Below are positions 5,709-38,746 of a DNA stretch of 64,000 bases, in pieces. Within the stretch, counting starts at the first letter, position 1. Each line of letters begins with the position of its first letter. A program made the translations under genes and the position numbers. The notes beneath the pieces were generated by a model, which was not told where the DNA came from, ran no database searches, and saw nothing but the letters and a program-made list of their open reading frames with translations. Source of the DNA: Verrucomicrobiota bacterium (lineage in GTDB: Bacteria > Verrucomicrobiota > Verrucomicrobiia > Palsa-1439); assembly GCA_037127585.1 (NCBI GenBank), contig JBAXYB010000004.1:4022-68021 (forward strand), read 5' to 3'.

Positions 5709-7037
5709 ATGCCGGCAGTGCCCAATCAGGTCCTGAGCGTCTCCGAACTGACCCGCCGCATCAAAGGTCTGCTCGAAGGCCAGTTCTCTTCACTCTGGGT
5801 CGAAGGCGAAATCTCCAACTTTGCCACCGCGCCGTCGGGTCACTGTTACTTCACGCTCAAGGACGCCAACGCCCAACTCTCCGCCGTCATGTTTCGCGGC
5901 GTCGCCGGCAAGCTGAACTTCAACGTCGCCGATGGCCAACAAGTCCTCGCCCGCGGCGAGATCAGCGTTTACGAACGCCGCGGCCAATATCAAATCATCG
6001 TCACGCAACTCCAGCCGAAGGGCCTCGGCGCGTTGCAGCTCGCGTTCGAGCAACTCAAACAGAAACTTGCCGCCGAAGGTTTGTTCGATCCCGCCCGCAA
6101 GAAACCCTTACCGGTTTTGCCGCAACGCATCGGCGTGGTCACCTCGCCGACCGGCGCGGCCATCCGGGATTTCCTCAACATCCTCAACCGCAGGTACCCG
6201 AACCGGCATGTCATCATCAACCCGGTCCGAGTCCAAGGCGACGGCGCGGCTCAGGAAATCGCTGCCGCCATCGACCAGTTCAACGCGCTCGACCTCGTTG
6301 ATGTCATCGTCATCACGCGCGGCGGCGGGTCGCTCGAAGATTTGTGGGCGTTCAACGAGGAAGTTGTCGCGCGCGCCATTGCCCGGTCGCGCCTCCCGAC
6401 GATCTCGGCGGTCGGCCACGAAATTGATTTCACCATTGCCGACTTCGTAGCCGACCTCCGCGCGCCGACGCCCAGCGCCGCCGCCGAGTTGGTCGTCCGC
6501 GCGAAGGAGGAGTTCATCGCCGAGCTCCGGCAACTGCAACAACGGCTCGATAAAGATTTGCGTTGGCGCGTCAGCGAAGCGCGGCGCCGGCTGGCCGATT
6601 GCGTCCTGCGACAGCCGGGCGAACTGGTCCGGCAGTACCAACAGCGCGTCGATGATCTCGATCACCGCTTGGAGCACGCCACCGGTAACATTCTCGGAAC
6701 GCAACGCCACCGGCTCAAGACCGCGACCGGCACGTTGAAGTTGCTCACGCCGCAGACCTTTGTCCGGCAACTCCGCCACCGCGTCGACGCCCACGAGCAG
6801 CGGCTGACGACGGAGTTGGCGCGGCACCGGCAAGCGATCCGGCATCGCCTCGGCTCGTTGACCGGCAAGTTGGAGTTGCTCAGCCCCAAGTCCACCCTCG
6901 CCCGTGGCTACAGCATCACCCGCACAGCGGACGGCAAGATCGTGAAAACCGTGAGAACCGTGAAACCGGGACTGCCGGTCCGGACGCTGGTGACCGATGG
7001 CGAGTTTGATTCGGTCGTTTCACGTCGGTCGGAGTAG
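5709..7037 (+). CDS. xseA: exodeoxyribonuclease VII large subunit
   Basis: The N-terminal OB fold (LSVSELTRRIKGLLEGQFSSLWVEGEISNF) and the protein length of about 440 aa match XseA. Confidence 0.85.
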   Translation: MPAVPNQVLSVSELTRRIKGLLEGQFSSLWVEGEISNFATAPSGHCYFTLKDANAQLSAVMFRGVAGKLNFNVADGQQVLARGEISVYERRGQYQIIVTQLQPKGLGALQLAFEQLKQKLAAEGLFDPARKKPLPVLPQRIGVVTSPTGAAIRDFLNILNRRYPNRHVIINPVRVQGDGAAQEIAAAIDQFNALDLVDVIVITRGGGSLEDLWAFNEEVVARAIARSRLPTISAVGHEIDFTIADFVADLRAPTPSAAAELVVRAKEEFIAELRQLQQRLDKDLRWRVSEARRRLADCVLRQPGELVRQYQQRVDDLDHRLEHATGNILGTQRHRLKTATGTLKLLTPQTFVRQLRHRVDAHEQRLTTELARHRQAIRHRLGSLTGKLELLSPKSTLARGYSITRTADGKIVKTVRTVKPGLPVRTLVTDGEFDSVVSRRSE

Positions 7038-7150: not shown

Positions 7151-8908
7151 ATGACACCTAAATTATTCTCTGAACTCGGCCTATCGGCTGAACTGCTGAA
7201 AGCCATCGATAAACTCGGGTTCGAGCAGGCGTCGCCCATTCAGGCGGCAGCGATACCGGTGTTGATGCAGGGGCACGATATCGTGGGGCAATCGCAGACG
7301 GGCTCCGGCAAGACGGCGGCGTTTGCGGTGCCGGCGATTGAGAAGATCGACGCGACGGTGCGCACGGTGCAGGTGCTGATTCTGTGTCCGACGCGGGAAC
7401 TGGCGGTGCAGGTGTCGGAAGAGGTCCACAAGCTGGCGGAGTTCAAGCGCGGCGTCCGTGCGTTGCCGGTGTATGGCGGACAGTCGTACGAGCGACAGTT
7501 TCAGGGATTGAAACAGGGCGTGCAGATCGTGATCGGGACGCCGGGGCGCGTGATGGATCATATGCGGCGCGGGACTCTCCGTCTGGATGCGCTGAAGATG
7601 GTGATTCTCGACGAAGCCGATGTGATGTTGGACATGGGGTTTCGTGATGACATCGAGATTATTCTCAAGGGCACACCGGCGGAACGACAGACTGTTTTCT
7701 TTTCGGCGACGATGCCGCCGGCGATTCAGCAGTTGATCAAGAAGTACGCGCGCACGCCGCAGAACGTCCGCATCGAGGAGAAGACGATGACGGTGTCGAC
7801 GGTCGAGCAGATCTATTACGAGATCGACCGGCGCTTCAAAGTGGAATTGCTGACGCGGCTCATCGACATTCACGATTTCAAACTCGGCATCATCTTCTGC
7901 AACACGAAACGGACGGTGGACGACCTCGTCACGCACTTGAACGCACAGGGCTATTCAGCGGAGGGCTTGCACGGCGACATGAATCAGGCGGTGCGCGACC
8001 GGGTGATGAACAAGTTCCGCAAGTCGGGGCTCGAATTTCTCGTGGCCACCGACATCGCCGCGCGCGGCATCGACGTGGACGACGTTCAGGTAGTGTTCAA
8101 CTACGACTTGCCGTACGACTCGGAAGATTATCTCCACCGGATCGGTCGAACCGGCCGCGCGGGTCGGAGCGGACAGGCGATCGCGTTCGTGTCAGGCCGG
8201 GAAGTCTATGCGATCCAGCACATCGAACGGTTCACCCGCACGCGGATGAAGCGCGGCAAACCGCCGACGATCGAGGAAGTGGACGAAGCGCGCGCGAATG
8301 TGTTCCTGAACAAACTGCGCGTCACGTTGCAGAGCGGTAAATTCATCCGGCAAGATCACTTTATCGAGCGGCTCTTGGAAGAAGGTTTTACCACGACCGA
8401 CATCGCCTCGGCCTTGCTGCATCATCTGGCCGGCGGCGAAACTCCCGCCACACCAGCTCCCGGCAAACCCAGCTTGAAAAAAGACCGCCGGGAGGGCGAG
8501 GCTCCCGCCGAGCCGCGGCCCGTTACTAAACTCGCGTCTGCTCCGGCAGCCATCGTCAAACCAACTCCGCCGGCCTCCAAGCCGGTTCATCACCCGGCCA
8601 TCCCTCGCCCGCCGGCCGCGAGACCCAGCGACCCGCGCCCCGGTCAGGCACCGCCCCACAGCCGGCGGACGCCCGCCCACCAAACCCGGCTCTTCCTTAG
8701 TGTCGGCGAAGAAATGGGCATGACCCCCGGCCATGTCGTCGGCGCCATTCTCGGCGAAACTGGCTTGAACCCGGACGCCATCGGCACAGTGGATATCCGG
8801 GCCCGGCATCTGTTTGTGGACGTCGCCACCGAACACGCCGCGCTGGTGGTCAAGAAGCTCAATCGCACCCGCATCAAAGGCCATCCGCTGAAAGCTAAAT
8901 TGGCGTGA
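7151..8908 (+). CDS. deaD: DEAD-box ATP-dependent RNA helicase (DeaD/CsdA-like with a C-terminal DbpA-type RNA-binding domain)
   Basis: The Q-motif region, Walker A (GSGKT), DEAD, SAT and HRIGRTGRAG motifs are all present, followed by a C-terminal extension. Confidence 0.85.
   Translation: MTPKLFSELGLSAELLKAIDKLGFEQASPIQAAAIPVLMQGHDIVGQSQTGSGKTAAFAVPAIEKIDATVRTVQVLILCPTRELAVQVSEEVHKLAEFKRGVRALPVYGGQSYERQFQGLKQGVQIVIGTPGRVMDHMRRGTLRLDALKMVILDEADVMLDMGFRDDIEIILKGTPAERQTVFFSATMPPAIQQLIKKYARTPQNVRIEEKTMTVSTVEQIYYEIDRRFKVELLTRLIDIHDFKLGIIFCNTKRTVDDLVTHLNAQGYSAEGLHGDMNQAVRDRVMNKFRKSGLEFLVATDIAARGIDVDDVQVVFNYDLPYDSEDYLHRIGRTGRAGRSGQAIAFVSGREVYAIQHIERFTRTRMKRGKPPTIEEVDEARANVFLNKLRVTLQSGKFIRQDHFIERLLEEGFTTTDIASALLHHLAGGETPATPAPGKPSLKKDRREGEAPAEPRPVTKLASAPAAIVKPTPPASKPVHHPAIPRPPAARPSDPRPGQAPPHSRRTPAHQTRLFLSVGEEMGMTPGHVVGAILGETGLNPDAIGTVDIRARHLFVDVATEHAALVVKKLNRTRIKGHPLKAKLA
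8488..8518. repeat. family-A palindrome half-site (CCGGGAGGGCGAGGCTCCCGCCGAGCCGCGG) in-frame inside deaD
   Basis: 30 of 31 nt are identical to the left arm of the intergenic palindrome at 38802. It is translated as REGEAPAEPR in the DeaD C-terminal linker. Confidence 0.6.
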
Positions 8909-9273: not shown

Positions 9274-11211
9274 ATGGGACGCTATCTCGAAATGATCAAT
9301 TCGCCTTCCGATGTGAAACTGCTGACGCAGGATCAACTCGGCACCCTCGCGCAGGAGATCCGCGATGAATTGGTTAATGTTCTCGCCAAGTCCGGCGGTC
9401 ACCTCGGCCCGAACCTCGGCGTCGTGGAACTCACCATCGCGATGCACAAGGTTTTTAGTTCCCCAAAAGATAAATTCGTCTGGGACGTGAGCCACCAAGT
9501 CTACGTCCACAAACTGCTGACCGGCCGCCGCAAAGATTTCTCCAAGATTCGTCAGACCGGCGGGCCGATGGGTTTCGCACTCCGGGAAGAAAGCCCCCAC
9601 GATTGTTTCGGCGCGGGTCATGCCGGCACGGCGTTGTCCGCGGCGCTCGGCATGGCGACCGCCCGCGACCACAGCGGCACCGACGAACAAGTCGTCGCGG
9701 TGATTGGTGACGCAGCCCTGACCTGCGGCGTCACGTTCGAAGCGCTCAACAACATCAAGCACTCCACGAAGCGTCTCATCGTCGTCCTCAACGACAACGA
9801 ATGGAGCATCGCCAAAAACGTCGGCGCGATCTCCGATTACCTCAACAAAATCGTCACCAACCCCCGGTATGCGGCCGCACACAAGAAATGGGAGTCGTTC
9901 CTGAACCGGCTCGGACCGGACATCGTGAAGATCGAGCACAAGGTCGAGGAAGCCTTCAAGAGTTTGCTCGTGCCCAGCGTGCTCTTCGAAGAATTCGGCC
10001 TCCGTTACATCGGCCCGATGGATGGCCACAATTTACCGAAGCTCATCGAGACGCTCGAATGGGCCAAGAAGCAGACCACGCCCATACTCCTCCATATTCA
10101 GACCGTCAAAGGCAAAGGCTACGAGAAAGCGCTCGAAGACCCGCAGACGTTTCACGGCACCGGCCCGTTCGATGTCAACACCGGCAAAGGCCCGGCCAAG
10201 AAGGACGGCACCCCGCCGAATTACCAGGATGTTTTCGGCGAAGCGATGGTGCGCTTCTGCGAAGTGAATAGCAAACTTGTCGGTATTACCGGCGCCATGC
10301 CCACCGGCACGGGCTTGATCAAATTGCAGAAAGCCAAACCCGACCGATATTTCGATGTCGGCATCGCCGAAGAACACGCCGTGATCTTCGCCGCCGGCAT
10401 GGCCACCATGGGCTACAAGCCGGTCTGCGCCATTTACTCGACGTTCCTCCAACGCGCCTACGATTGCATCATCCACGATGTCGCCCTGCAAAATCTCGAC
10501 GTCATCTTCTGCATGGATCGCGCGAGCCTTTCCGCTAACGATGGCCCGACCCATCACGGTTTGTTCGACATCGCCTATGGTCGTTGCATTCCCGGCGCGA
10601 CACTGATGTCGCCGAAGGATGAAGACGAACTCTGCGACATGATGTGGACGGCGCTCCAGCATCACGGCCCAATCATGATCCGGTATCCCCGCGGTACCGG
10701 CGAAGGCGTTCCGATCAAAGCCAAGCCGGGCATCCTCCCCATCGGCAAGGCCGAAGTCCTGCAACACGGCACCGATGTCGCCATCATTTTCTACGGCGCC
10801 ATGCAAAAGATGGCGAAAGAAACCGCCGCCGCGTTACAAGCCGAAGGCAAATCCGTTGCGATCATCAACGCCCGTTTCGCCAAACCGATCGACCGCGACA
10901 TGCTCGAAAAATATGGCCACATCGCCAAAGTCGTCTGCACGCTCGAAGACCACGTGCTGATGGGCGGGTTCGGCAGCGCCGTCATGGAAACCCTCGGCGA
11001 CATGCACATCACCACCCCGGTCGTCCGCGTCGCCTGGCCGGACAAATTCATCGAACACGCCTCCACGCCAAAGGATTTGCAGGACAAATATAACGTCAAC
11101 TCCGCGACCGCCATCACCAAGATCAAAGACGCGCTCGCGCATGTGGCCCAGCTGACCGATCAACCCCAAAAGTTCCGCGTCCTCGGCGCAGTCGATGCGC
11201 GCACGGCTTGA
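9274..11211 (+). CDS. dxs: 1-deoxy-D-xylulose-5-phosphate synthase
   Basis: The TPP-binding GHxG...GDG...NDN motifs are present, the protein is 645 aa, and the N-terminus (INSPSDVKLLT..L..LA.EIR) is typical of Dxs. Confidence 0.9.
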   Translation: MGRYLEMINSPSDVKLLTQDQLGTLAQEIRDELVNVLAKSGGHLGPNLGVVELTIAMHKVFSSPKDKFVWDVSHQVYVHKLLTGRRKDFSKIRQTGGPMGFALREESPHDCFGAGHAGTALSAALGMATARDHSGTDEQVVAVIGDAALTCGVTFEALNNIKHSTKRLIVVLNDNEWSIAKNVGAISDYLNKIVTNPRYAAAHKKWESFLNRLGPDIVKIEHKVEEAFKSLLVPSVLFEEFGLRYIGPMDGHNLPKLIETLEWAKKQTTPILLHIQTVKGKGYEKALEDPQTFHGTGPFDVNTGKGPAKKDGTPPNYQDVFGEAMVRFCEVNSKLVGITGAMPTGTGLIKLQKAKPDRYFDVGIAEEHAVIFAAGMATMGYKPVCAIYSTFLQRAYDCIIHDVALQNLDVIFCMDRASLSANDGPTHHGLFDIAYGRCIPGATLMSPKDEDELCDMMWTALQHHGPIMIRYPRGTGEGVPIKAKPGILPIGKAEVLQHGTDVAIIFYGAMQKMAKETAAALQAEGKSVAIINARFAKPIDRDMLEKYGHIAKVVCTLEDHVLMGGFGSAVMETLGDMHITTPVVRVAWPDKFIEHASTPKDLQDKYNVNSATAITKIKDALAHVAQLTDQPQKFRVLGAVDARTA

Positions 11212-11911
11212 TATCGCCCTCTTCGACCGCGGCCTAACCGACAGCCGCGAGAAGGCCAAACGCCTGATCCTGGCCGGGGCCGTTCGCATCAACGGCCAGG
11301 TTGCCGGCAAACCCAGCGACATGGTTGCCGACGACGCCGTTCTCACCGTCGCCGCCGCCGAGAAATACGTCAGCCGTGGCGGCCACAAACTCGAAGCCGC
11401 ACTCGACGCATTCCATATCGATTGCGACGGCAAGACCTGCGCGGATCTGGGCGCCTCGACCGGCGGTTTTACCGACTGCCTCCTCCAACGCGGGGCCGCC
11501 GTCATCCATGCCGTGGACGTTGGCAAAGGCCAACTCGCCTGGAAACTCCGGCAAGACAAACGTGTCCTGATCCACGACGAAGTGAACGCGCGAAGTTATA
11601 CCGGCGAACTAGTCGATATCGTCACCATCGACGTCTCGTTCATCTCCCTCACCAAAGTCCTACCGGCGGCGGCGCAACTGCTCCGACCGGGCGGTCACCT
11701 CGTCGCGCTCATCAAACCACAATTCGAAGCCGGCCGCCGTGATGTCGGCAAAGGCGGCGTCGTGCGCGACCCGGTCGTTCACGAACGCGTGCAATCCGAG
11801 GTGAAAGAATTCGGCCTCGGCCTCGGTCTGCGGTTGCTTGGCATCGTCGAATCGCCTATTCTTGGGCCGGCAGGAAACAAAGAATTCCTCATCGGCTTTC
11901 AGAAACCGTGA
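11195..11911 (+). CDS. tlyA: TlyA-family rRNA 2'-O-methyltransferase (hemolysin A)
   Basis: An S4-like N-terminus (RLDIALFDRGLTDSREKAKRLILAGAVRING) is followed by an FtsJ-type methyltransferase motif (DLGASTGGFTD). Confidence 0.8.
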   Translation: MRARLDIALFDRGLTDSREKAKRLILAGAVRINGQVAGKPSDMVADDAVLTVAAAEKYVSRGGHKLEAALDAFHIDCDGKTCADLGASTGGFTDCLLQRGAAVIHAVDVGKGQLAWKLRQDKRVLIHDEVNARSYTGELVDIVTIDVSFISLTKVLPAAAQLLRPGGHLVALIKPQFEAGRRDVGKGGVVRDPVVHERVQSEVKEFGLGLGLRLLGIVESPILGPAGNKEFLIGFQKP

Positions 11912-13459: not shown

Positions 13460-15037
13460 ATGAATAAGACGGTTGCCATCTACGACACGACGCTGCGGGA
13501 CGGGACGCAGGCGGAAGGGATCTCGTTTTCAAGCGCGGATAAGATCCGCATTGCGGAACGCCTCGATGCGTTTGGCGTGAATTACATCGAAGGCGGCTGG
13601 CCGGGGTCGAATCCGAAGGACATGGAGTTTTTTGTCGAGGCGGCGAAACGCAAATTTAAGACGGCCCGGATCGCGGCGTTCGGCAGCACCCGCCGGGCAA
13701 ATACGAAATGCGCGGACGATAAACAGATCGCGACGTTGCTCGCAGCCAATACTCCGGTGGTGACGATGGTCGGGAAGACGTGGTCGTTGCATGTTCGCGA
13801 GGTGATCCGTACGACGCCCGAGGAAAACGTGGCGATGGTCAGCGATTCGATCCGGTATTTCAAGGGACTCGGCAAGGAAGTCATCTATGACGCCGAACAT
13901 TTCTTTGACGGCTATAAAGACGATCCCCGGTATTCGTTGGCAACGTTGACGGCGGCGCAGGCGGCTGGCGTGGACATGGTGGTGCTCTGCGATACGAACG
14001 GCGGGACGATGCCGGGCGAGATCGCGCGGGTGACCAGCGAGGTGCGGAAGGCGTTGAACTGCGCGGTCGGGATTCATACGCATAACGACAGCGGTTGCGG
14101 CGTGGCCAACGCATTGGCGGCGGTGGAAGCCGGCGCGACCCAGGTCCAAGGCACGATGAACGGCTACGGCGAACGCACCGGTAACTGCAACTTGATTACC
14201 GTCATGCCGTGTCTCGTTTACAAGATGGGCTATACCTGCATCGCGCCGGAGCAGCTCCGGCATTTGCGGGAGCTGGCCAATTTCATCGACGATCTCGCGA
14301 ATGTGCGGCCGGACATCCGGCAACCGTTCGTCGGCTCGACGGCGTTCGCGCACAAAGGCGGCATCCACGTGAACGCCATCGAGAAAGTCGCGCGCAGTTA
14401 CGAACACATCGAGCCGGAGCTTGTCGGCAATCAACGCCGCGTTTTGGTCAGCGATCTCAGCGGGCGCAGTAACATCATGCTGAAGGCGCACGAGATGGGC
14501 ATCGACCTCAGCAAGGATACCGCCGAGGTGCGGGAGATTCTCGCCCAGCTCAAGCAATTGGAACACGGCGGCTACGAATTCGAAGCGGCGGACGCGAGCT
14601 TTCATATTCTGATCCAGAAATTACTCAAGAAGCACAAGCCGTTCTTCAAGCTGCTCGGCTACCGGGTCATCATGGATCGGCCGGCCGGTGACGGGAAATA
14701 TAGCGTCGAAGCGAGCGTGAAACTCGATGTGAACGGCGAGTCGATCCACACGGTGGCGGAAGGTGACGGCCCGGTCAACGCGCTCGATAACGCATTGCGC
14801 AGCGCGCTCACGAACTTTTATCCATCCATCCAGTCGGTGCGTCTCATCGACTACAAAGTGCGCATCCTCGAAAGCGGGACCGGCACGGCCGCCAAGACGC
14901 GGGTGATGATCGAATCCACCGACGGCACCAGTATCTGGGGCACGGTCGGCGTTGACGACAACATCATCGAAGCAAGTTGGGAAGCCCTTGTCGACTCCGT
15001 CGAATACAAGCTGTTCAAGGACGAGCAGCGCAAGTAA
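13460..15037 (+). CDS. cimA: (R)-citramalate synthase / 2-isopropylmalate-synthase-family enzyme
   Basis: MNKTVAIYDTTLRDGTQAEGISFS is a DRE-TIM barrel N-terminus. At 525 aa with the HxH metal site and a C-terminal LeuA-type regulatory domain, the protein matches the CimA subgroup. Confidence 0.8.
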   Translation: MNKTVAIYDTTLRDGTQAEGISFSSADKIRIAERLDAFGVNYIEGGWPGSNPKDMEFFVEAAKRKFKTARIAAFGSTRRANTKCADDKQIATLLAANTPVVTMVGKTWSLHVREVIRTTPEENVAMVSDSIRYFKGLGKEVIYDAEHFFDGYKDDPRYSLATLTAAQAAGVDMVVLCDTNGGTMPGEIARVTSEVRKALNCAVGIHTHNDSGCGVANALAAVEAGATQVQGTMNGYGERTGNCNLITVMPCLVYKMGYTCIAPEQLRHLRELANFIDDLANVRPDIRQPFVGSTAFAHKGGIHVNAIEKVARSYEHIEPELVGNQRRVLVSDLSGRSNIMLKAHEMGIDLSKDTAEVREILAQLKQLEHGGYEFEAADASFHILIQKLLKKHKPFFKLLGYRVIMDRPAGDGKYSVEASVKLDVNGESIHTVAEGDGPVNALDNALRSALTNFYPSIQSVRLIDYKVRILESGTGTAAKTRVMIESTDGTSIWGTVGVDDNIIEASWEALVDSVEYKLFKDEQRK

Positions 15038-16898: not shown

Positions 16899-16976
16899 GC
16901 GCGCAGTGTAGAAGAACCATTCCCGTTAGCAAAGCGCGTTTGTAGTGAGCCTGCAAAGCGGCACGGGTTTGGTGGT

Positions 16977-17039
16977 GTGGGAGCGGCGTCCCCGCCGCGA
17001 CCGGGTCGGCAAAAATCGCGGCGGGGACGCCGCTCCCAC
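16977..17039. repeat. REPIN: two identical 24-nt units (GTGGGAGCGGCGTCCCCGCCGCGA) in inverted orientation with a 15-nt spacer
   Basis: The doublet is a perfect inverted repeat at 16977-17000 and 17016-17039, lying in the divergent region between the hpn-like gene and metH. Confidence 0.6.
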
Positions 17040-17109
17040 AACGACTGTTGGTTCGTTACCTCCCTTGCCCAATGTCACCGCCGCTGCTATTGTCACCGCC
17101 GGCAACCCC

Positions 17110-20100
17110 ATGAGCACCGACCGCACTCAATTACTTTTTGACGCCCTAAACCAAAGCATTCTCGTGCTCGACGGCGCGATGGGAACGATGATCCAGAATC
17201 GCGACCTGACCGCCGCCGACTTCGGCGGACCGGCACTCGAAGGTTGCAACGAAAACCTCGTACTCACCCGCCCCGATGTCATTCGCGATATCCACCGGCA
17301 ATACTACGCCGCCGGCGCGCACATCGTCGAAACGAACACCTTCGGCGCGACGCCACTCGTGCTCGCGGAGTACGGTTTGCAGGACAAATGCCGGGAGATC
17401 AATGTCGCCGCCGCCCGGCTGGCTCGGGAAGCAGCCATCGAGTTCAACGGTTTCGTGGCCGGCTCAATCGGGCCAACGACAAAAGCCATCACCGTGACCG
17501 GCGGCGTGACGTTTCAGCAACTGGTTGAGAATTTCCATGCCCAAGCCCTCGGATTGATCGAAGGCGGCGCCGATCTGTTGCTCGTGGAAACTTGTCAGGA
17601 CACGCGCAACATCAAAGCCGCGCTCATTGGCATCGCCCAGACCGGCAGCAAGATTCCCGTGATGGTCTCCGGGACGATTGAGCCGATGGGCACGATGCTG
17701 GCCGGGCAGGCGGCGGAAGCGTTGGTCGCCTCGTTGCAGCATGTGGAACTGTTGGCCATCGGCTTGAACTGCGCGACCGGCCCGGAGTTCATGACCGATC
17801 ACATTCGGACCATTCATCAGATGACGAACGCGCGCGTGTCGTGTTACCCGAACGCCGGTCTGCCCAACGAGGAAGGTTTGTACCTCGAAACGCCAACCTC
17901 GCTCGCGACGGCGCTGGAGCGGTTCGTCAAGAACGGCTGGCTCAATATCATCGGCGGCTGCTGCGGGACGACACCGGCTCACATCAAAGCCATCGCGGAG
18001 ATGGTTGCCGGCAAGGAACCGCGCCGGCATCGCGGAGAACGGAAATCATGGTACAGCGGCATCGAATTGGTCGAAGCCAGCGACGACACCCGGCCGTTGA
18101 TCGTCGGCGAACGGACCAACGAAGTCGGCTCGCGCGCGTTCAAGCGACTCATCACGGAAGAAAAGTTCGAGGAAGCCAGCGAGATTGCTCGGGCGCAGGT
18201 CAAGCACGGCGCGCACATCATCGATATCAACCTCGAAAACACCGACCGGGACGAGTTGCTGGACATCGACCGGTTCTACGAGAAGGTCATTCACAAAGTC
18301 AAAGCGCCGATCATGATCGACTCGACCAACCCAAAGTCTGTCGAGCGCGCCCTCACCTATTGCCAAGGCAAGAGCATCATCAACTCGATCAACTTCGAGG
18401 ATGGCGAGGAGAAGTTTAACCACATCCTCCCCCTCGTACACCGGTACGGCGCCGCGGTGATCATCGGTTCGATCGACGAAGACAAATTGCAGGCGCAAGC
18501 CATCACCCGCGAACGCAAACTCGCCATCGCCCAACGCGCGCACAAGTATTGCATCGAACACGGCATCCCGGAAGAAGACCTCATTTTCGACCCGCTCGTT
18601 TTCCCCTGCGCGACTGGCGACGAGAATTATATTGGCAGCGCCGTCGAGACGATCGAAGGCGTGCGGCTCATCAAAGAAAACTTGCCGCGCTGCAAAACTG
18701 TCCTCGGCGTCAGCAACGTCAGCTTCGGTTTACCGGCAGCCGCCCGCGAAGTCATCAATTCAGTCTTCCTCTATCATTGTTCCCGTGCCGGCCTTGACCT
18801 CGCCATCGTCAACGCCGAGAAACTGGAACGTTACCCGAGCATCCCCGACGTCGAAAAGAAGCTCACGGAAGATTTACTCCACAACTATCCACCCGCCGGC
18901 ATGGACGCGCCAAAGGATTACCGGCAGCAGACCAAGGAACAACGCGCCGCGATCAACCAGCATCACATCGCCGCCATCAGCGAACACTTCCGCGGCGCGG
19001 AGAGTCGCGTAAAGAAGAAGACCTCCGATTTGCCGCTCGATGGCCGGCTCGCCAATTACATTCTCGAAGGCACGAAGGAAGGGCTCATCCCCGACCTTGA
19101 CCTGAAACGCGCAGAAGGCGCGACCCCGCTCGACATCATCAACGGCCCGCTCATGGACGGCATGAAAGAAGTCGGCCGGTTGTTCAACGCCAACGAACTG
19201 ATCGTCGCCGAAGTCCTCCAATCCGCCGAAGCGATGAAGGCCGCCGTCAACCACCTCGAACAGTTCATGGAAAAGAAGTCGGACTCGACCAAGGGCAAAG
19301 TCCTGCTCGCCACCGTCAAAGGCGACGTGCATGACATTGGCAAGAACCTCGTCGAAATCATTCTCTCGAACAACGGCTTCCACGTCATCAATCTCGGCAT
19401 CAAAGTTCCGCCCGAAGATTTGATCAAGGCGTACAAGGAACACCAGCCCGACGCCATCGGCTTGAGTGGCTTGCTCGTCAAGAGCGCCCAGCAAATGGTC
19501 ATCACCGCCGGTGACCTCAAACAAGCCGGCATCACCGTCCCGATGCTCGTCGGCGGCGCAGCGTTGAGCGACAAATTCACCCGCAACCGGATTGCGCCGA
19601 GCTACGAACAAGTCGTCATCTACTGCAAAGACGCCATGACCGGCTTGGCGATGATGAATAACCTGATGGACCCGGCCCAGCGCGAAAAAGTCGTCGAAGC
19701 CCACAAGCCGGTCGCCGTCGCTGTTGTCGAACCCGAAGCGGAGGAATTCCCCGAAACCACGCACCGCAGCATCCGCATCCACGAGGAGCTGCCATTACCC
19801 GTGCCCTACCCCGACCGGAAAGTGCGCGACGTTCCCCAGCTCCGCGAGATTTGGGAATACATCAATCCGCAGATGCTCTACGTCCGGCATCTCGGCTTCA
19901 AAACCAACTACGAGAAAGCCCTCGCCGCTCGTGACCCAAAAGCGCTGGAGCTTTACAACCTCGTCGAAGAAGTCAAAGTCGAAGCCGCGAAGTTCATGAA
20001 AGTGAAAGCCGTCTGGCAATTCTTCGAGGCGGAGGTGGATGGTAACAGCATCAAGCTGTTTTCGCCGCCGCGCCCACTCGCCGCCGCGCCCATTCATGTG

Positions 20101-20589
20101 TTTAACTTCCACCGGCAACGCAAACCTGACGGGCTGTGTTTGGCCGACTACATCAATGCCCCACATGATTCCGTGGCGATGTTCGTCGTCGGTGCCGGCA
20201 CCGGCATCCGGCAACGCGCCGAGGAATACAAAGCGCAAGGTGAATACCTCAAGTCCCACGCGCTCCAAGCCCTCGCCATCGAGACCGCTGAAGGTTGTGC
20301 TGAGTGGTTGCACCGGCGCATCCGGGAAGACTGGGGTTTCCCAGACCCCGCCGACATGACGATGCTCAACCGGTTCACGACCAAATACCGGGGCCGCCGC
20401 TACAGCTTCGGCTACCCGGCCTGCCCCGCGCTCGAAGACCAAGCCGGCATCTGGAAGCTGCTCAAGCCGGAAGAGATTGGAGTTCAACTCACGGAAGGTT
20501 TCATGATGGACCCGGAAGCATCGGTAAGCGCTTTGGTATTCCACCACACCGATTGCGCGTACTTTGGGGTTGGCGATACCGGAGAGTAG
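17110..20589 (+). CDS. metH: cobalamin-dependent methionine synthase
   Basis: The 1160-aa protein from MSTDRTQLLFDALNQSILVLDGAMGTMIQ carries Hcy-binding, pterin-binding, B12-binding (DVHDIGKN) and AdoMet reactivation domains. Confidence 0.9.
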   Translation: MSTDRTQLLFDALNQSILVLDGAMGTMIQNRDLTAADFGGPALEGCNENLVLTRPDVIRDIHRQYYAAGAHIVETNTFGATPLVLAEYGLQDKCREINVAAARLAREAAIEFNGFVAGSIGPTTKAITVTGGVTFQQLVENFHAQALGLIEGGADLLLVETCQDTRNIKAALIGIAQTGSKIPVMVSGTIEPMGTMLAGQAAEALVASLQHVELLAIGLNCATGPEFMTDHIRTIHQMTNARVSCYPNAGLPNEEGLYLETPTSLATALERFVKNGWLNIIGGCCGTTPAHIKAIAEMVAGKEPRRHRGERKSWYSGIELVEASDDTRPLIVGERTNEVGSRAFKRLITEEKFEEASEIARAQVKHGAHIIDINLENTDRDELLDIDRFYEKVIHKVKAPIMIDSTNPKSVERALTYCQGKSIINSINFEDGEEKFNHILPLVHRYGAAVIIGSIDEDKLQAQAITRERKLAIAQRAHKYCIEHGIPEEDLIFDPLVFPCATGDENYIGSAVETIEGVRLIKENLPRCKTVLGVSNVSFGLPAAAREVINSVFLYHCSRAGLDLAIVNAEKLERYPSIPDVEKKLTEDLLHNYPPAGMDAPKDYRQQTKEQRAAINQHHIAAISEHFRGAESRVKKKTSDLPLDGRLANYILEGTKEGLIPDLDLKRAEGATPLDIINGPLMDGMKEVGRLFNANELIVAEVLQSAEAMKAAVNHLEQFMEKKSDSTKGKVLLATVKGDVHDIGKNLVEIILSNNGFHVINLGIKVPPEDLIKAYKEHQPDAIGLSGLLVKSAQQMVITAGDLKQAGITVPMLVGGAALSDKFTRNRIAPSYEQVVIYCKDAMTGLAMMNNLMDPAQREKVVEAHKPVAVAVVEPEAEEFPETTHRSIRIHEELPLPVPYPDRKVRDVPQLREIWEYINPQMLYVRHLGFKTNYEKALAARDPKALELYNLVEEVKVEAAKFMKVKAVWQFFEAEVDGNSIKLFSPPRPLAAAPIHVFNFHRQRKPDGLCLADYINAPHDSVAMFVVGAGTGIRQRAEEYKAQGEYLKSHALQALAIETAEGCAEWLHRRIREDWGFPDPADMTMLNRFTTKYRGRRYSFGYPACPALEDQAGIWKLLKPEEIGVQLTEGFMMDPEASVSALVFHHTDCAYFGVGDTGE

Positions 20590-20803
20590 ATGTCCAAGTA
20601 TTGCGAGCTCTGACAGGTCTTGGTAGGATGTTGGTCGATGAATCTGCACCTCGACGAAACGATCCGCCGCAGACGCCCGATGAACGCGTCGAGACGTTGA
20701 TGGCTGCACTACGGGAGGTCGAAGCGCGCGGAATGTGGCCGAGGATTGATCGCAAAGCTAAGGAGCAGCGCATTATTCAGGGCCTTCATGCTGCTCGGAT
20801 TGC

Positions 20804-21001
20804 CCGGAAGAAATCGGCGTGCAGTTGACCGAAGGATTCATACTGAACCCGGGAATCGAGCGACGAGGGCAGTAGCGAGATGACGTTGTGTCGTTTCAAC
20901 GCCCGAAGGGTGTTGCGCGCGGGAGCGAGCAACATCAACCCAGCGTCAGCGCACTCGTGTTTCACCACCCCGATTGCGCGTACTTCGGCGTCGAGACGTA
21001 A
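20804..21001 (+). pseudogene. degenerate second copy of the metH 3' end
   Basis: It reads CCGGAAGAAATCGGCGTGCAGTTGACCGAAGGATTCAT...GTGTTTCACCACCCCGATTGCGCGTACTTCGGCGTCGAGACGTAA. This parallels the metH terminus (EEIGVQLTEGFMMDP...VFHHTDCAYFGVGDTGE*) with an internal indel of about 100 bp. Confidence 0.6.
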
Positions 21002-21041
21002 CGGAATAAACCACAGAGGCACAGGGGTCGCAGAGTCGTTG

Positions 21042-21066
21042 GTAGGGACGGCTCGCCGAGCCGTCC
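21042..21066. repeat. single REP unit (GTAGGGACGGCTCGCCGAGCCGTCC)
   Basis: GTAG is followed by a perfect 10-nt hairpin, about 55 bp upstream of the TA operon. Confidence 0.5.
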
Positions 21067-21119
21067 GCTCTGGCAGACTCAATCTTGATTACCGGGCCAC
21101 AGCCAGTTAATCTATCGAC

Positions 21120-21302
21120 ATGGCTACGGCAAACATCAAGGCTGACTTGAAAGAGATTGCGGAGCACTTACCGGTGACGTCTTCCTACACGGATGCGATG
21201 TACGAGTTGTCCTTTCGCATGAAGATTACCCACGCGAAGCAGGCCGCCAATGAAGGCCGGGTTATCCCTCACGCGGAAGTGAAGCGAGGATTTCACCTAT
21301 GA
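21120..21302 (+). CDS. small antitoxin-like protein, a diverged member of the same family as the next gene
   Basis: The 60-aa ORF overlaps the next ORF by 4 nt. Its C-terminus (...EGRVIPHAEVKRGF) resembles the conserved C-terminus of putative addiction-module antitoxins. Confidence 0.35.
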   Translation: MATANIKADLKEIAEHLPVTSSYTDAMYELSFRMKITHAKQAANEGRVIPHAEVKRGFHL

Positions 21303-21532
21303 GCAAATCGGAGATTCTGAGCGAATTGCCGAACCTCAGCGCCAAGGAACGACGGGAGATTCTCGACAGTCTCTTGCAGCTTGAGGGCGCAGGCTGGCTG
21401 GATGCGGCTGATCTCACCGACGAAGAACGCCAACTCATCGAATCCCGTCTCGAAGCTCATCGCCAGAATCCTGACGCTGCCATCCCATGGGAAGACGTCG
21501 AAGCGAAACTGATCGCACGCTTCGGCAAATGA
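21299..21532 (+). CDS. type II antitoxin (putative addiction module component family)
   Basis: MSKSEILSELPNLSAKERREILDSLLQL...AAIPWEDVEAKLIARFGK matches the pattern of unstable-antitoxin families. The ORF overlaps the ParE gene by 4 nt. Confidence 0.6.
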   Translation: MSKSEILSELPNLSAKERREILDSLLQLEGAGWLDAADLTDEERQLIESRLEAHRQNPDAAIPWEDVEAKLIARFGK

Positions 21533-21840
21533 GCTACCGGCTCAACGCCCGTCCTGAAGTTTCTCCAGACATTCTCGAGGCCGCCGATTGGTACGAACGT
21601 CAGCAACCGGACTTGGGCGCGGACTTTGTCCGTGAAGTCCGACACAGTATCCAATCACTGCGCGTCAATCCCTTGCTGTACCGGATTCGACATGCAAAAT
21701 GGCGCGTCCGGTGGGTACTACTCCATCGCTTCCCGTATCAAATTGTCTTCGTCGTCGATGGTGAACTGATTACGATTCTTGCCGTGATGCACGCCAAGCG
21801 ACATGACCGCCACTGGCGTGAACGAGCGAAAGCCGGATGA
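21529..21840 (+). CDS. parE: ParE/RelE-family toxin
   Basis: The ATG at 21529 opens MSYRLNARPEVSPDILEAADWYERQQPDLGADFVREV...YRIRHAKWRVRWVLLHRFPYQIVFVVDGELITILAVMHAKR, a ParE fold pattern. Confidence 0.65.
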   Translation: MSYRLNARPEVSPDILEAADWYERQQPDLGADFVREVRHSIQSLRVNPLLYRIRHAKWRVRWVLLHRFPYQIVFVVDGELITILAVMHAKRHDRHWRERAKAG

Positions 21841-21890
21841 GCCGCCTCCGAATATTTCTTAAGCGCTTGCCCCGAATCCTTTTCGGGGTC

Positions 21891-21953
21891 AGCGCGCTGG
21901 TGTTCCATCACACGGATTGCAACTATTTTGGCGTGGGTGATGTAGGCGATTAA
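21891..21953 (+). pseudogene. third copy of the metH 3' end (SALVFHHTDCNYFGVGDVGD*)
   Basis: It is nearly identical at the peptide level to the metH terminus SALVFHHTDCAYFGVGDTGE*, and sits immediately after the parE stop. Confidence 0.65.
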
Positions 21954-22028
21954 GATAGGCACGGGCTTGTGCCAACTGAAGTTTTCACAATCAGTCTAAT
22001 TTCTTCATGTGCGAGGCGATCTTGCATA

Positions 22029-22139
22029 GTGTCCTAATCTGGACCGACGTTGTAGCCGAAGCGTGAGCTTCGGGCGTCAGCATGCGAATCCCGAAGCTCA
22101 CGCTTCGGCTACAGGAAAGGCTGGGAGAAATTAGGACAC
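22029..22139. repeat. nested REPIN: two identical units (TGTAGCCGAAGCGTGAGCTTCGGG) inverted, inside an outer GTGTCCTAAT/ATTAGGACAC inverted repeat
   Basis: The inner arms lie at 22051-22074 and 22090-22113, and the outer arms at 22029-22038 and 22130-22139. Confidence 0.6.
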
Positions 22140-22183
22140 CACCGGGAGTTGCAATCGAAGTTCCCGACCACTAAAGTCCACGC

Positions 22184-22666
22184 ATGAAACTGAATCTGCT
22201 CTCGTTCACTACTTCCCTGGCTTTCTGCCTGATCGTCCTGACTTCGGCGTGCGCGAAGAGTGACGAGGCTTCGAATTCGAACGCACCGGCGCAAGCGCCG
22301 GCCAAAACTGAGCCGGCCAAACCGGCGACGGAGGTTAAGGTGACCGAGTTGAAAACTGAAGAGATCAAGGTCGGGACCGGCGCAGAAGCCGTGGCCGGCA
22401 AGACTGTGTCGGTGCATTACACCGGCTGGCTGGTGGACGGGACGAAGTTTGATTCGTCGAAAGATCGCGGGCAGCCGTTTAGTTTCCCGCTCGGCGGCGG
22501 GCGGGTCATCAAAGGTTGGGATCAAGGCGTGGCCGGCATGAAAGTCGGCGGGACGCGCAAGCTCACCATCCCGGCCAGCCTCGGCTACGGCGACCGGGGT
22601 GCTGGCGGCATTATTCCTCCCGGCGCGACGCTGGTATTCGAGGTCGAGTTACTCGGCGTGAATTGA
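22184..22666 (+). CDS. FKBP-type peptidyl-prolyl cis-trans isomerase, likely a lipoprotein
   Basis: Lipobox LTSAC; FKBP motifs [14 protein letters not shown] and [27 protein letters not shown]. Confidence 0.8.
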
Positions 22667-36496: not shown

Positions 36497-36661
36497 GTGC
36501 AACCCTTCGCCGCCATCGACTGTCCGCACTGTGGCGAAAAATTCACGCTCGCCATTGACCCTAGCGAAGACGACGCGGAGTTTGTCATCGACTGTGAAAT
36601 TTGTTGCCGGCCGATGACGGTTACTGTCCACGACGGAGAAGTCCATGCCGTTGCCGATTGA
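36497..36661 (+). CDS. CPXCG-type zinc-ribbon small protein (54 aa), absent from the supplied ORF track
   Basis: A GTG start 3 nt after the aminotransferase stop opens VQPFAAIDCPHCGEKFTLAIDPSEDDAEFVIDCEICCRPMTVTVHDGEVHAVAD*, with CPHCG and CEICC motifs. Confidence 0.5.
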   Translation: MQPFAAIDCPHCGEKFTLAIDPSEDDAEFVIDCEICCRPMTVTVHDGEVHAVAD

Positions 36662-36720
36662 ACAAGCCTCCTACTGGCTCGCCACCCGGCCACCCCCGAA
36701 TCCGTCCCGCTAACCGGCAC
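36660..36720 (+). repeat. displaced partial copy of the 5' end of the downstream FAD-oxidoreductase gene; left direct repeat of TA cassette 2
   Basis: GAACAAGCCTCCTACTGGCTCGCCACCCGGCC-CCCCGAATCCGTCCCGCT compares with 37382-37440, which reads GAACAAGCCTCCTACTGGCTCGCCACCCGGCCTCCCCATGAATCCGTCCCGCT. The identity is about 90% and the left copy is frame-shifted. Confidence 0.65.
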
Positions 36721-36757
36721 CCTTCGCGCCAATAATCCTATTTCGGAGTCCCGTCGT

Positions 36758-37048
36758 TTACGTCAGCCGCTGTCTGATCCAAGTCGGATTCCGGCGGCAG
36801 TCCAGTACGGCATTGACGTGAACAGTGTCGCCGGTCACGGTGTAGTAGATGGCAAATGGAAAACGCTTGGATAGGCAGCGCTGCTGGCCGAAAACGATTG
36901 AGTGAATGCCAGCATACAGTTGCAGCGAATCGATGTCGGAAAACAGGCAGTCAAGAAAGTAGTTACCAAGACCAAGTTCTTGTTTCTCGTAGAAACAGAA
37001 ACCGTCAATCAGGTCGTGCCGCGCATCGTCGTGAATCTCAACTCTCAC
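36758..37048 (-). CDS. parE: ParE/RelE-family toxin
   Basis: MRVEIHDDARHDLIDGFCFYEKQELGLGNYFLDCLFSDIDSLQLYAGIHSIVFGQQ...YYTVTGDTVHVNAVLDCRR matches the ParE pattern (...Y.....I.V.RVLH..RD). Confidence 0.65.
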   Translation of the reverse strand: MRVEIHDDARHDLIDGFCFYEKQELGLGNYFLDCLFSDIDSLQLYAGIHSIVFGQQRCLSKRFPFAIYYTVTGDTVHVNAVLDCRRNPTWIRQRLT

Positions 37049-37260
37049 GACACTTGGCGGCGGAGGTCAACCTTGGCCGATTCCCACGAGGTGTATCCCG
37101 CCTTGCCTTCGGCGACCCGGTTCTGTCGCTGCTCCAGCACTTCCTTGTGCCATGCCGGAGATTCGACGGCTTCGGGTGTGCGCGATAAGTCCTCCCACAA
37201 GGCTTCCATCGCGGCGAGCTTCTCTGCCAGAGTCATTTCTTTCAACGCCAGCGTTGTCAT
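37045..37260 (-). CDS. type II antitoxin (putative addiction-module component)
   Basis: The ATG at 37260 opens MTTLALKEMTLAEKLAAMEALWEDLS...SWESAKVDLRRQVS. A 4-nt overlap links it to the toxin gene. Confidence 0.55.
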   Translation of the reverse strand: MTTLALKEMTLAEKLAAMEALWEDLSRTPEAVESPAWHKEVLEQRQNRVAEGKAGYTSWESAKVDLRRQVS

Positions 37261-37369
37261 GGCCAAACTATACCGTGGCCGGCCGGAATTGCCAATCTGA
37301 ACGTCCCGACATGAATAAAAAGTTATTACGCCGCGCCTCACTCCATCCTGGCTGTGCTAAACTGTTCCC

Positions 37370-38746
37370 GTGCGCCCCATCGAACAAGCCTCCTACTGGC
37401 TCGCCACCCGGCCTCCCCATGAATCCGTCCCGCTGACCGGCGACCGCAACGCCGACATCGTCATCATCGGTGGCGGCTTTACCGGCCTCTGGACCGCTGT
37501 GGCTCTCAACCAACTCGCACCGGCCGCCACCATCATCCTCCTCGAACGCGCCTGTCTCGGCTACGGCGGCAGCGGTCGCAATGCCGGCCAAGTCAGCGGC
37601 GGCATCGACCACTCCCACCAAAAAGCCATCGCCCATTTCGGACTCGACGAAGCCCGGCGCATGGCGACACTCGGACTCCAAAACCTCGACGAGATCGGCC
37701 AATTCTTCCGGCACCACAAACTCGACTGCGATTTTGCGCGCACCGGCCAACTCTTCGTCGCCCTCACGCCCGCGCAAGTGGAAGACGCCCGCGCCGCCGT
37801 GGCCGCCGCCACGCAAGTCGGTATTGCCGACGCGCGCGTGCTCACCGCCGACGAAACTCGCGCCGAACTGAACAGCCCCCTCTACTGCGGCGGCGCCATT
37901 GACCCAACCTGGGGCATCGTCAACCCCATCAAAATCGTCGACGGCATTCGCCAAGTTATGACCACTGCCGGCGTGAAAATCTTCGAGCGCACGCCGGTCA
38001 CTGCCATCGACCCGACCGGCCCCAAAGTCCGCGTCAAAACTCTGACCGGCACCGTTGTGGCAGACAAAGTCATCCTCGCCACCAACGCCTACTCACACCA
38101 CCTCATCCCGCGGCTCCTGCGCCGGTACATCCCGCTCTACGACTACGTCCTCGTCAGCGAACCCCTCACCCCCGCCCAACTCGCCGCGATCGGCTGGCAA
38201 CGCCGGCAAGCCGTCGTCGACGGTCGCACCTTCTTCAACTATTACCGGCTCACCGCCGACAACCGGATCCTCTGGGGCACCAGCGAAGCCCGGTATTACT
38301 CCGGCAATCGCGTCGACGAATCTTGCGACCACTCCGAAACCCACTACGCCGCGCTGCGCGCCAGCTTCACTCGGCATTTCCCCCAACTGGCCGGCTTGCA
38401 ATGGCCCTACGCCTGGGGTGGTCCGATCGCCTCGACGACCCGGCTCACCCCATTCTTTGGGTCACTGGCTGGTGGCCGCATTCACTATGGCTTGGGCTAT
38501 ACCGGTCTCGGCATCGCCAACTCCCATCTCGCCGGCAAGATTCTCGCCCATCAAACCCTCGGCATCCCCAGTCCCCTCCTCGACCTCGCACTAGTCCGCC
38601 ACCAACCGCTCCTCTACCCACCCGAACCAATCCGCACGTGGGCCGTGAACATCATCACCCGTTCCCTGCGCCGCGTGGATGCCGGCGCGAAGCCCAACGC
38701 CTTGTTGCGAGCCCTCGATCTGCTCGGAATCGGCTTCTCGAGCTAG
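37370..38746 (+). CDS. FAD-dependent oxidoreductase (DAO family; gamma-glutamylputrescine-oxidase/PuuB-like)
   Basis: The N-terminal Rossmann motif is DIVIIGGGFTGLWTA, in a 458-aa protein. It lies next to the putrescine uptake and aminotransferase genes. Confidence 0.65.
   Translation: MRPIEQASYWLATRPPHESVPLTGDRNADIVIIGGGFTGLWTAVALNQLAPAATIILLERACLGYGGSGRNAGQVSGGIDHSHQKAIAHFGLDEARRMATLGLQNLDEIGQFFRHHKLDCDFARTGQLFVALTPAQVEDARAAVAAATQVGIADARVLTADETRAELNSPLYCGGAIDPTWGIVNPIKIVDGIRQVMTTAGVKIFERTPVTAIDPTGPKVRVKTLTGTVVADKVILATNAYSHHLIPRLLRRYIPLYDYVLVSEPLTPAQLAAIGWQRRQAVVDGRTFFNYYRLTADNRILWGTSEARYYSGNRVDESCDHSETHYAALRASFTRHFPQLAGLQWPYAWGGPIASTTRLTPFFGSLAGGRIHYGLGYTGLGIANSHLAGKILAHQTLGIPSPLLDLALVRHQPLLYPPEPIRTWAVNIITRSLRRVDAGAKPNALLRALDLLGIGFSS

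Follow-up and report, generated by a model that had tools for sequence, protein, structure and literature searches.

The arrays of displaced gene ends described at Rhs, CDI (contact-dependent growth inhibition) and type VI secretion system (T6SS) loci are built on a conserved upstream anchor, to which an incoming module supplies a new 3' end together with its linked gene or genes. The previous 3' end is retained further downstream, together with the gene linked to it, so that the array runs from newest to oldest; the junctions are irregular and no integrase is present; homology-facilitated illegitimate recombination, with a homologous anchor on one side and an illegitimate join on the other, has been proposed as the model for T6SS effector-immunity arrays and Rhs orphans (PMC5361080). 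This type of recombination, known from Acinetobacter, Pseudomonas stutzeri and Streptococcus pneumoniae (see PMC5361080 and PMC2884548), allows the capture of foreign DNA beside a conserved gene through one homologous arm and one illegitimate joint. The mechanisms by which toxin-antitoxin (TA) cassettes integrate are poorly characterised according to a 2026 study, which reports palindromes at both empty and occupied TA sites in Photorhabdus (PMC13617665). The features of the Rhs, CDI and T6SS arrays are shared by the interval between metH and fkbP in a 64,000-nt stretch of DNA from a Verrucomicrobiota bacterium (assembly GCA_037127585.1, contig JBAXYB010000004.1, positions 4,022 to 68,021), referred to below as the window. 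This 1.6 kb interval contains three further metH 3'-end pieces, all in the orientation of metH, and is read here, with moderate confidence, as an accretion array formed by serial terminal displacement.

The anchor, metH (16945-20589, plus strand), is an open reading frame (ORF) for a functional cobalamin-dependent methionine synthase, as indicated by the Pfam domains of an identical gene. Its functional end is copy 1 of the repeat (repeat region 20467-20589, plus strand), of which the last ~22-41 codons would represent the newest, "replacement" end. Copy 2 consists of an upstream piece (20802-20852, plus strand; codons PEEIGVQLTEGFILNP, metH about -123 to -75; nhmmer E 1e-8) and a downstream piece (20941-21001, plus strand; ending in SVSALVFHHPDCAYFGVET and a stop codon at 20999-21001; E 6e-11), and copy 3 (21886-21953, plus strand; E 1e-11) starts at metH -66 and encodes VSALVFHHTDCNYFGVGDVGD followed by a stop codon. 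A first-pass annotation of the window had proposed three serial copies of the metH end, and similarity confirms them at essentially the same coordinates: copies 2 and 3 share 76-81% and 73-77% of their nucleotides with copy 1, respectively, and the extra copies match an nhmmer profile built on the final 225 nt of metH in related (Verrucomicrobiia) genomes with E values of 1e-8 to 1e-11, whereas no further metH-end match in the 64-kb window has an E value below 0.4. The existence of copy 2 is thereby borne out, but its description as simply degenerate is not, as the copy is two pieces split by an 88-nt insert (20853-20940).

The origin of the copies was examined by comparison with 80 genome loci and 80 metagenome loci fetched by the closest MetH C-termini (cited below by L number), the closest matches being metagenome-assembled genomes (MAGs) of Verrucomicrobiia from peat and soil. 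When functional and displaced metH copies are compared codon by codon and the differences are tallied per codon position, 23, 16 and 158 differences fall on the first, second and third positions, respectively, so that third positions account for 80% of the 197 in total. In the window, the corresponding counts relative to copy 1 are 3/0/9 for 20802-20852, 2/0/8 for 20941-21001 and 3/2/13 for copy 3. The displaced copies keep their reading frames and terminal stop codons, and the pair of ends in L007 differs at 43 nucleotides over 73 codons while 69 amino acids are identical. Decay in place would spread changes evenly over the codon positions, and the fragments therefore diverged inside working metH genes; because the differences concentrate at third codon positions, the copies are not local duplicates but derive from metH genes that were functional in separate lineages. 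The displaced copies are thus foreign (xenologous) and have recently been brought together, and the third-position bias (80% of the differences) upholds the previous proposal that replacement and displaced gene ends arose here by repeated foreign insertion.

Synonymous sites provide information on the order of the copies. The synonymous identity of copy 1 to relatives is 0.28-0.50 over the last 22 codons and mostly 0.31-0.59 over codons -41 to -22, compared with about 0.55-0.65 in the rest of the window metH. Copy 1 is the least clade-like of the three at synonymous sites, and copy 3, which has the most clade-typical codon usage, is probably the oldest, native metH end. These synonymous-site results agree with a newest-proximal, oldest-distal order, with both tests resting on few codons. 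The breakpoint signal in metH is limited to this drop in synonymous identity over the last 22-41 codons: sliding identity against L081 (89% amino acid identity) and L082 (87%), relatives that are too diverged for this purpose, reveals no sharp recombination breakpoint. Additionally, the 48-66 nt of the three copies are too short for the assignment of a nearest-neighbour lineage to any of them.

Within the interval, a linkage exists between each cassette and the metH end on its upstream side. The first unit comprises copy 1 and a cargo remnant with its spacer (20590-20801, plus strand). The 214 bp gap between copies 1 and 2 contains a frameshifted remnant (~20640-20790; tblastn 59% identity, E 3e-15) of a 60-aa ORF, with a 10-nt deletion, and the second gene of the cassette is absent. 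In L033 and L006, this 60-aa ORF lies directly 3' of the functional metH stop codon, separated from it by a homologous spacer, and in L033 it belongs to an intact two-gene cassette in which a 155-aa partner follows. The alignment shows that metH end, spacer and 60-aa ORF are colinear in window copy 1, L033 and L006, and that the donor sequence of unit 1 breaks off inside the cassette gene. The state of this unit agrees with the earlier suggestion that one cargo was kept and the other largely lost.

The second unit comprises copy 2, a spacer with an inserted repeat block (21002-21119, plus strand, by alignment) and three small genes on the plus strand. The first of these, an orphan antitoxin-like gene of 60 aa (21120-21302), has no Pfam match, and its homologues (64-72% identity) are located directly 3' of the functional metH stop codon in L007, L083 and L098; in L007 and L098 the homologue is followed by a ParE toxin. 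The metH end, spacer and antitoxin are colinear in the alignment of window copy 2 with L007, L083 and L098. In the window, this first antitoxin lacks its usual ParE partner and is followed by another antitoxin/ParE pair, the start codon of which overlaps its stop codon. The pair consists of an antitoxin (Unstab_antitox, PF09720; 21299-21532; E 1.3e-6) and a ParE-family toxin (ParE_toxin, PF05016; 21529-21840; E 1.8e-9), both matches exceeding the curated cut-offs. In light of these family-level domain matches and the overlapping stop and start codons (ATGA) of the small genes, 21299-21840 is predicted to be a type II TA module, which agrees with the ParE operon previously placed between copies 2 and 3; an exact look-up of the window ParE returned no record for the protein as called. 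The GTAG-type hairpin noted ahead of the operon is also real (21046-21073, within the spacer; fold z = -2.8). The window therefore stacks two units that, in other genomes, occur separately as an active arrangement beside functional metH. Two further public assemblies (L161 and L162) contain the window arrangement with 100% identity over 2 kb, which excludes an assembly artefact.

A serial import of units consisting of a gene end and a cassette is very probable, and confidence in the particular recombination route, a homologous anchor with an illegitimate join, is only slightly better than even. The mobile unit would be the last part of metH with a spacer and a small cassette, derived from a lineage that carries the cassette directly after metH. 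The incoming DNA would pair with the resident metH by ordinary homologous recombination, with metH as the anchor, and its non-homologous far end would be joined illegitimately within the last 50-240 nt of the resident gene. The imported end would then complete metH, and the resident end with its downstream content would be pushed one step away. From youngest to oldest, the interval would read as copy 1 with the cassette remnant, copy 2 with the orphan antitoxin and the antitoxin/ParE pair, and copy 3, beyond which fkbP lies. Once founded in this way, the arrangement could be passed on between genomes by homologous recombination on both sides.

Direct repeats around a cargo normally recombine and delete the cargo. 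From the arrangement we infer, together with the homologous-plus-illegitimate mechanism, an addictive role of the cargo: the repeats may persist because loss of the TA genes would kill the cell, and replacements would, on the same grounds, survive less well than additions in which the resident antitoxin is kept.

Extra metH ends, from one to three per locus, are present in ~11 of the ~32 non-redundant Verrucomicrobiia-type metH loci (the window, L001, L002, L007, L011 with two, L012, L014 (= L096), L033, L086, L089 with two, and L100), which supports the recurrent hotspot suggested by the first-pass annotation. Among ~125 loci of other phyla, there is one comparable case, L052. The cargo between the metH ends is BrnT with a small partner gene in L001, a 60-aa antitoxin gene with a ParE toxin in L007, HicA/HicB in L014, and PemK/MazF with a 62-aa partner in L086. 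L089 (7256-9068) contains metH, an RHH and PIN pair (VapBC), a metH end (from -155), PemK with a 62-aa partner, a further metH end (from -117) and a DndB-like gene; with two successive TA units, it is the clearest array among the relatives. Eight of the 11 repeat-flanked cargo segments are TA-type two-gene cassettes, a bias that is in line with the addiction idea. Where only a single metH end is present, larger genes predominate; the cargo of these loci comprises a TIR protein, an Mrr-type nuclease, a RelE/HTH pair and several unknown proteins, some of it (TIR, Mrr) defence-like. Because the cargo differs from genome to genome, the metH-fkbP interval is a variable spot across the clade. Its conserved right border is fkbP, which lies 0.9-4 kb 3' of metH in many related loci; in the window, fkbP (22184-22666, plus strand) encodes an FKBP-type prolyl isomerase (FKBP_C, Pfam E 2e-37).

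Several of these loci show further details. Minimal forms without cargo occur in L012 (10814-10908), L100 (937-1131) and L011 (10814-10935), where 30, 57 and 67 nt, respectively, of hairpin or repetitive extragenic palindrome (REP)-like sequence separate the metH stop codon from the displaced end. In L014 (= L096), a 113-nt internal piece of metH (about -540 to -428, with a low-complexity in-frame insert) is repeated at 10353-10465 and 11675-11787 with 97% identity, the second copy lying 3' of the displaced end, which suggests a further, more recent rearrangement. L052, from an acidobacterium (a Ca. Acidiferrum MAG), has repeats at 10682-10914 and 13694-13925 (79% identical) around a 2.8-kb insert; each repeat comprises the last ~70 nt of metH and ~165 nt downstream, and the metH part of the distal repeat is frameshifted.

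The same architecture is found at the 5' end of a flavin adenine dinucleotide (FAD) oxidoreductase gene in the window and at the 3' end of fkbP in L004, and is therefore not specific to metH. In the window (span 36654-37441), a TA cassette on the minus strand (36758-37257) is flanked by a displaced oxidoreductase 5' end (36654-36719) and the functional 5' end (37376-37441, in the gene 37370-38746), which are 91% identical over 66 nt. The cassette consists of an Unstab_antitox antitoxin (37045-37257, minus strand; Pfam E 9e-15) and a gene of 96 aa in the toxin position (36758-37048, minus strand), which has no Pfam match and is ParE-like by reading of its sequence. The displaced 5' end keeps the original ATG, which overlaps the stop region of an upstream CPXCG zinc-ribbon gene, and the working gene now starts at a new GTG. 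In L004 (4966-5628; = L085 13669-14331), 67 nt of the fkbP 3' end are duplicated with 97% identity around a DUF4160/DUF2442 pair on the opposite strand, and the two differences between the repeats are both non-synonymous. A gene-terminus duplication of the same kind, with cargo that is not a TA module, is shown by L135, where two genes lie between duplicates of a 266-nt stretch from the 5' end of a gene for a UvrD-like helicase (6439-6704 and 8508-8770, 98.5% identical).

The possibility that an insertion duplicated the resident end, by a long target duplication or template switching, with subsequent divergence in place or allelic replacement of the functional copy, has to be weighed against these data. 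The fkbP case and the 113-nt piece of L014, each 97% identical, do look like recent local copies, and repeat lengths of ~66-72 nt recur at three genes. At metH, however, the third-position bias with intact frames contradicts such an origin, as do the match of the units to functional arrangements in other genomes and the minimal loci L012 and L100, which have no second copy of the intervening sequence. Local duplication is consequently refuted by the codon-position test as the main process at metH, although it may apply to the two high-identity cases, and as an account of the locus it is very improbable. The two outcomes that had been named as counting against a foreign origin, namely a lack of significant similarity and simple local tandem duplication, are both contradicted, the former by the alignments and the latter by the codon positions.

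The junctions bear on the proposal of the first-pass annotation that an integrase inserted the units site-specifically. Counted in nt relative to the metH stop codon, the displaced metH fragments start at about 11 different positions (-234, -222, -220, -155, -123, -117, -112, -70, -66, -58 and -51), and only three junctions are common to two genomes (the window and L012; L033 and L100; L014 and L011); these three look inherited. Under site-specific integration, small elements with a replacement metH end would enter an attB site at the 3' end of metH by means of a tyrosine or serine recombinase, either trans-acting or since lost, and the copies would be attL/attR-type repeats. Elements of this kind classically leave direct repeats of the target gene's 3' end and restore the gene; the newest unit is nearest the gene, as in tandem island accretion, and the three shared junctions recur with different cargo. 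Such gene-end repeats are found here, without a single crossover position, and the searches described next found neither a recombinase nor an attP copy. A Pfam search of 30 cargo ORFs from 16 loci, and of the window cassette, reveals no recombinase domain, and a heuristic scan for tyrosine and serine recombinase motifs in the window and 37 related loci with flanks of up to 10 kb, which is weaker than a profile search, gives only spurious matches, none of them plausible. Six peptide patterns for the metH end have no match on 2.9 million viral contigs, plasmid collections not having been searched. A scan of the window finds no tRNA or transfer-messenger RNA (tmRNA) gene and therefore no classical integrase target. 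In light of the ~11 different fragment starts, the failure of these scans to find a recombinase, a donor side truncated inside a gene, cassettes of only 0.03-1.5 kb and the same architecture at two unrelated genes, one of them at a 5' end, the integrase proposal is not sustained, and site-specific integration is an unlikely explanation. The interval also differs from an integron: metH stands at the head of the array in place of intI and attI, and the motif scan detects no integrase; fragments of metH, not attC sites, separate the cassettes, the hairpins have no GTTRRRY box, and cassettes occur in both orientations.

An explanation that requires no recombinase is a Campbell-type event, in which non-replicating circles of a gene-terminus fragment and a cassette, released by repeat recombination in a donor, enter the recipient gene end by a single RecA-dependent crossover. 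The repeat lengths of 51-234 nt are all above a plausible minimal pairing length, and such events would explain why the cassettes are always flanked by direct repeats of one gene terminus, whether 3' or 5'. However, no circular form is known and transforming DNA enters as linear single strands, and the origin of the first repeat-flanked copy and the truncated cassette at the unit 1 junction are left unexplained. This explanation is about as unlikely as site-specific integration.

A hairpin is associated with many of the junctions. In the window, a hairpin of the type CCCCGAATCCTTTTCGGGG with an extended stem (21863-21895, core 21870-21888; fold -13.9 kcal/mol, z = -4.4) is located 29 nt 3' of the ParE stop codon and is fused directly to copy 3, and the junction is identical in L012. 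The REP-like family to which it belongs can be written as CCCCGAAT[CT]CTTTTCGGGG with variants, often with TTTA just before it. It occurs at 21870-21888 in the window and in L001 (4338), L012 (10829), L086 (11491), L100 (978 and 1043) and L033 (11413), with further sites in L010 (2485), L014 (11881), L084 (7078) and L090 (4490). In ~0.55 Mb, seven of 12 distinct occurrences of CCCCGAATCCTTTTCGGGG and its variant touch displaced metH fragments, and these seven represent five independent junctions at several metH positions. The family is thus strongly enriched at the 5' edge of displaced gene-end fragments, and it also occurs away from junctions (L010, L014 and L084). In most loci, the hairpin occupies the position where the terminator of the unit's last gene would be, and the hairpin is absent from about half of the junctions. 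A displaced fragment in L100 is interrupted by a 23-nt unit with the hairpin, so that metH sequence continues on either side of it, which indicates that the hairpin can insert secondarily.

The adjacency of hairpin and fragment may reflect a structure-directed step. Under hairpin-directed insertion, a CCCCGAATCCTTTTCGGGG-type hairpin at the distal end of the unit would be used by a structure-specific enzyme, such as a REP-associated HUH transposase or a resolvase-like protein, which would connect the ends of cassettes with gene termini. In addition to the five independent junctions, a decayed copy of the hairpin is present at the junction of the second TA locus of the window (36654-37441), and the palindromes reported in Photorhabdus (PMC13617665) are found at empty and occupied TA sites alike. 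A 218-aa ORF in L011 (4272-5063), flanked by 67-nt direct repeats that are 87% identical, resembles a REP-associated (IS200-like) transposase when judged by eye, and this assignment by sequence appearance also speaks for such an enzyme. The junctions that lack the hairpin, its terminator position, its occurrence elsewhere and its apparent secondary insertion in L100 all argue in the opposite direction, and palindrome-anchored secondary deletions would give the same adjacency. The hairpin may accordingly be a REP-like element that prefers certain targets, it may reflect fragment trimming by secondary deletions anchored at palindromes, or it may have a real role in junction formation. Hairpin-directed insertion is slightly less likely again than the integrase and circle models, and an equally low probability is given to a dedicated system for structure-directed mobilisation of TA cassettes in this Verrucomicrobiia lineage, in which a trans-acting enzyme would fuse hairpin-marked units to conserved gene termini. 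If true, such a system would produce integron-like TA arrays without an integron integrase, with the end of a host gene as the homing arm.

Serial terminal displacement through a homologous anchor and an illegitimate join remains the favoured explanation, and several observations weigh against it. The hairpin abuts the fragment start at five independent junctions, which random illegitimate joining does not predict. The fragments are only 51-234 nt long, which also fits the integration of circles by a single crossover with minimal homology. The two cases outside metH are 91-97% identical, with too few differences to show a foreign origin. An exact look-up of FkbP for an empty or variant site in the same species retrieves two contigs only, both with the identical arrangement. 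The recombination pathway itself is a reconstruction from sequence comparison, and natural transformation and end-joining enzymes are hypothetical for this lineage.

The remaining features of the interval concern its small repeats. The 88-nt element that splits copy 2 (20853-20940, plus strand; identified by blastn against L002) also splits a displaced metH fragment in L002 (11741-11821), at a different place, with 92% identity over a 50-nt core (blastn). Both insertions are at GG^AAGC without a target duplication, and only two copies are present in the 2.3 Mb examined; it is possibly a non-autonomous insertion element of small size. The sequence between copy 3 and fkbP includes what looks like a pair of REP-like units (22051-22113; fold z = -8.1), a perfect inverted repeat of 24 nt that has GTAG heads and is interrupted by a 15-nt spacer. 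An Rfam scan of 20300-22400 with E values up to 10 gives only chance miRNA and snoRNA matches on palindromes, and the repeats and the 88-nt insert are not a known RNA family. Additionally, a 38-codon ORF (21837-21953) begins on the ParE stop codon (ATGA overlap) and runs through the hairpin into copy 3. A coding or regulatory role for the displaced fragments was considered on this basis and rejected, as the frame through the hairpin is lost in L100 and the fragment extents differ; the ORF is probably fortuitous.

Taken together, this locus and the related ones provide a natural series in which a dozen or more independent insertions are recorded, with both junctions preserved and the donor arrangement identifiable elsewhere. 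This series indicates that the last codons of a conserved neighbour gene can serve as a vehicle for the spread of TA cassettes, in which no recombinase of their own was found, and that the cassettes can pile up into ordered arrays. It also suggests why such arrays grow and why orphan antitoxins persist: losing or replacing an addictive cassette would be lethal, whereas adding one would not. If the process is general, short displaced gene ends may serve as a genome-wide marker with which recombination-driven gene gain in uncultured bacteria can be dated and traced.

A comparison with the known systems places the locus closest to the displacement arrays. Integrative elements at the 3' ends of tRNA, tmRNA and protein genes resemble it in that the gene is restored by sequence of the element, direct repeats flank the insert and tandem accretion occurs; unlike those elements, the units described here come with no recombinase found and no single crossover position, the inserts are only 0.03-1.5 kb long, the donor ends are arbitrary and a 5' end is affected elsewhere. 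Chromosomal integron arrays share the ordered small cassettes, the repeated separators and the newest-proximal order, and their TA cassettes are thought to stabilise the array, but here intI and attI are lacking, fragments of a host gene take the place of attC, and the cassettes, each with its own promoter, are found in both orientations. Homology-facilitated illegitimate recombination likewise combines a homologous arm with an illegitimate joint; laboratory crosses are the setting in which it is known, usually with a deletion in the recipient, whereas here the joint lies upstream of the anchor end and recipient sequence is duplicated. As in the Rhs, CDI and T6SS arrays, the terminus of the anchor gene is imported, old termini are retained with the genes that follow them, and both donor and recipient junctions are irregular. 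In contrast to the variable toxin 3' ends of Rhs and CDI, the metH anchor is a housekeeping gene in which the imported end specifies the same amino acids as the old one; what the displaced ends encode is the conserved MetH C-terminus and no polymorphic toxin, and the toxins are encoded by separate type II TA genes. Instead of an immunity gene that matches a displaced tip, the cargo is accordingly a type II TA operon that is independent and can have either orientation, and the selective logic would be addiction instead of kin immunity. The feature is therefore best filed as a terminal displacement array, here on a housekeeping gene and with type II TA cargo.

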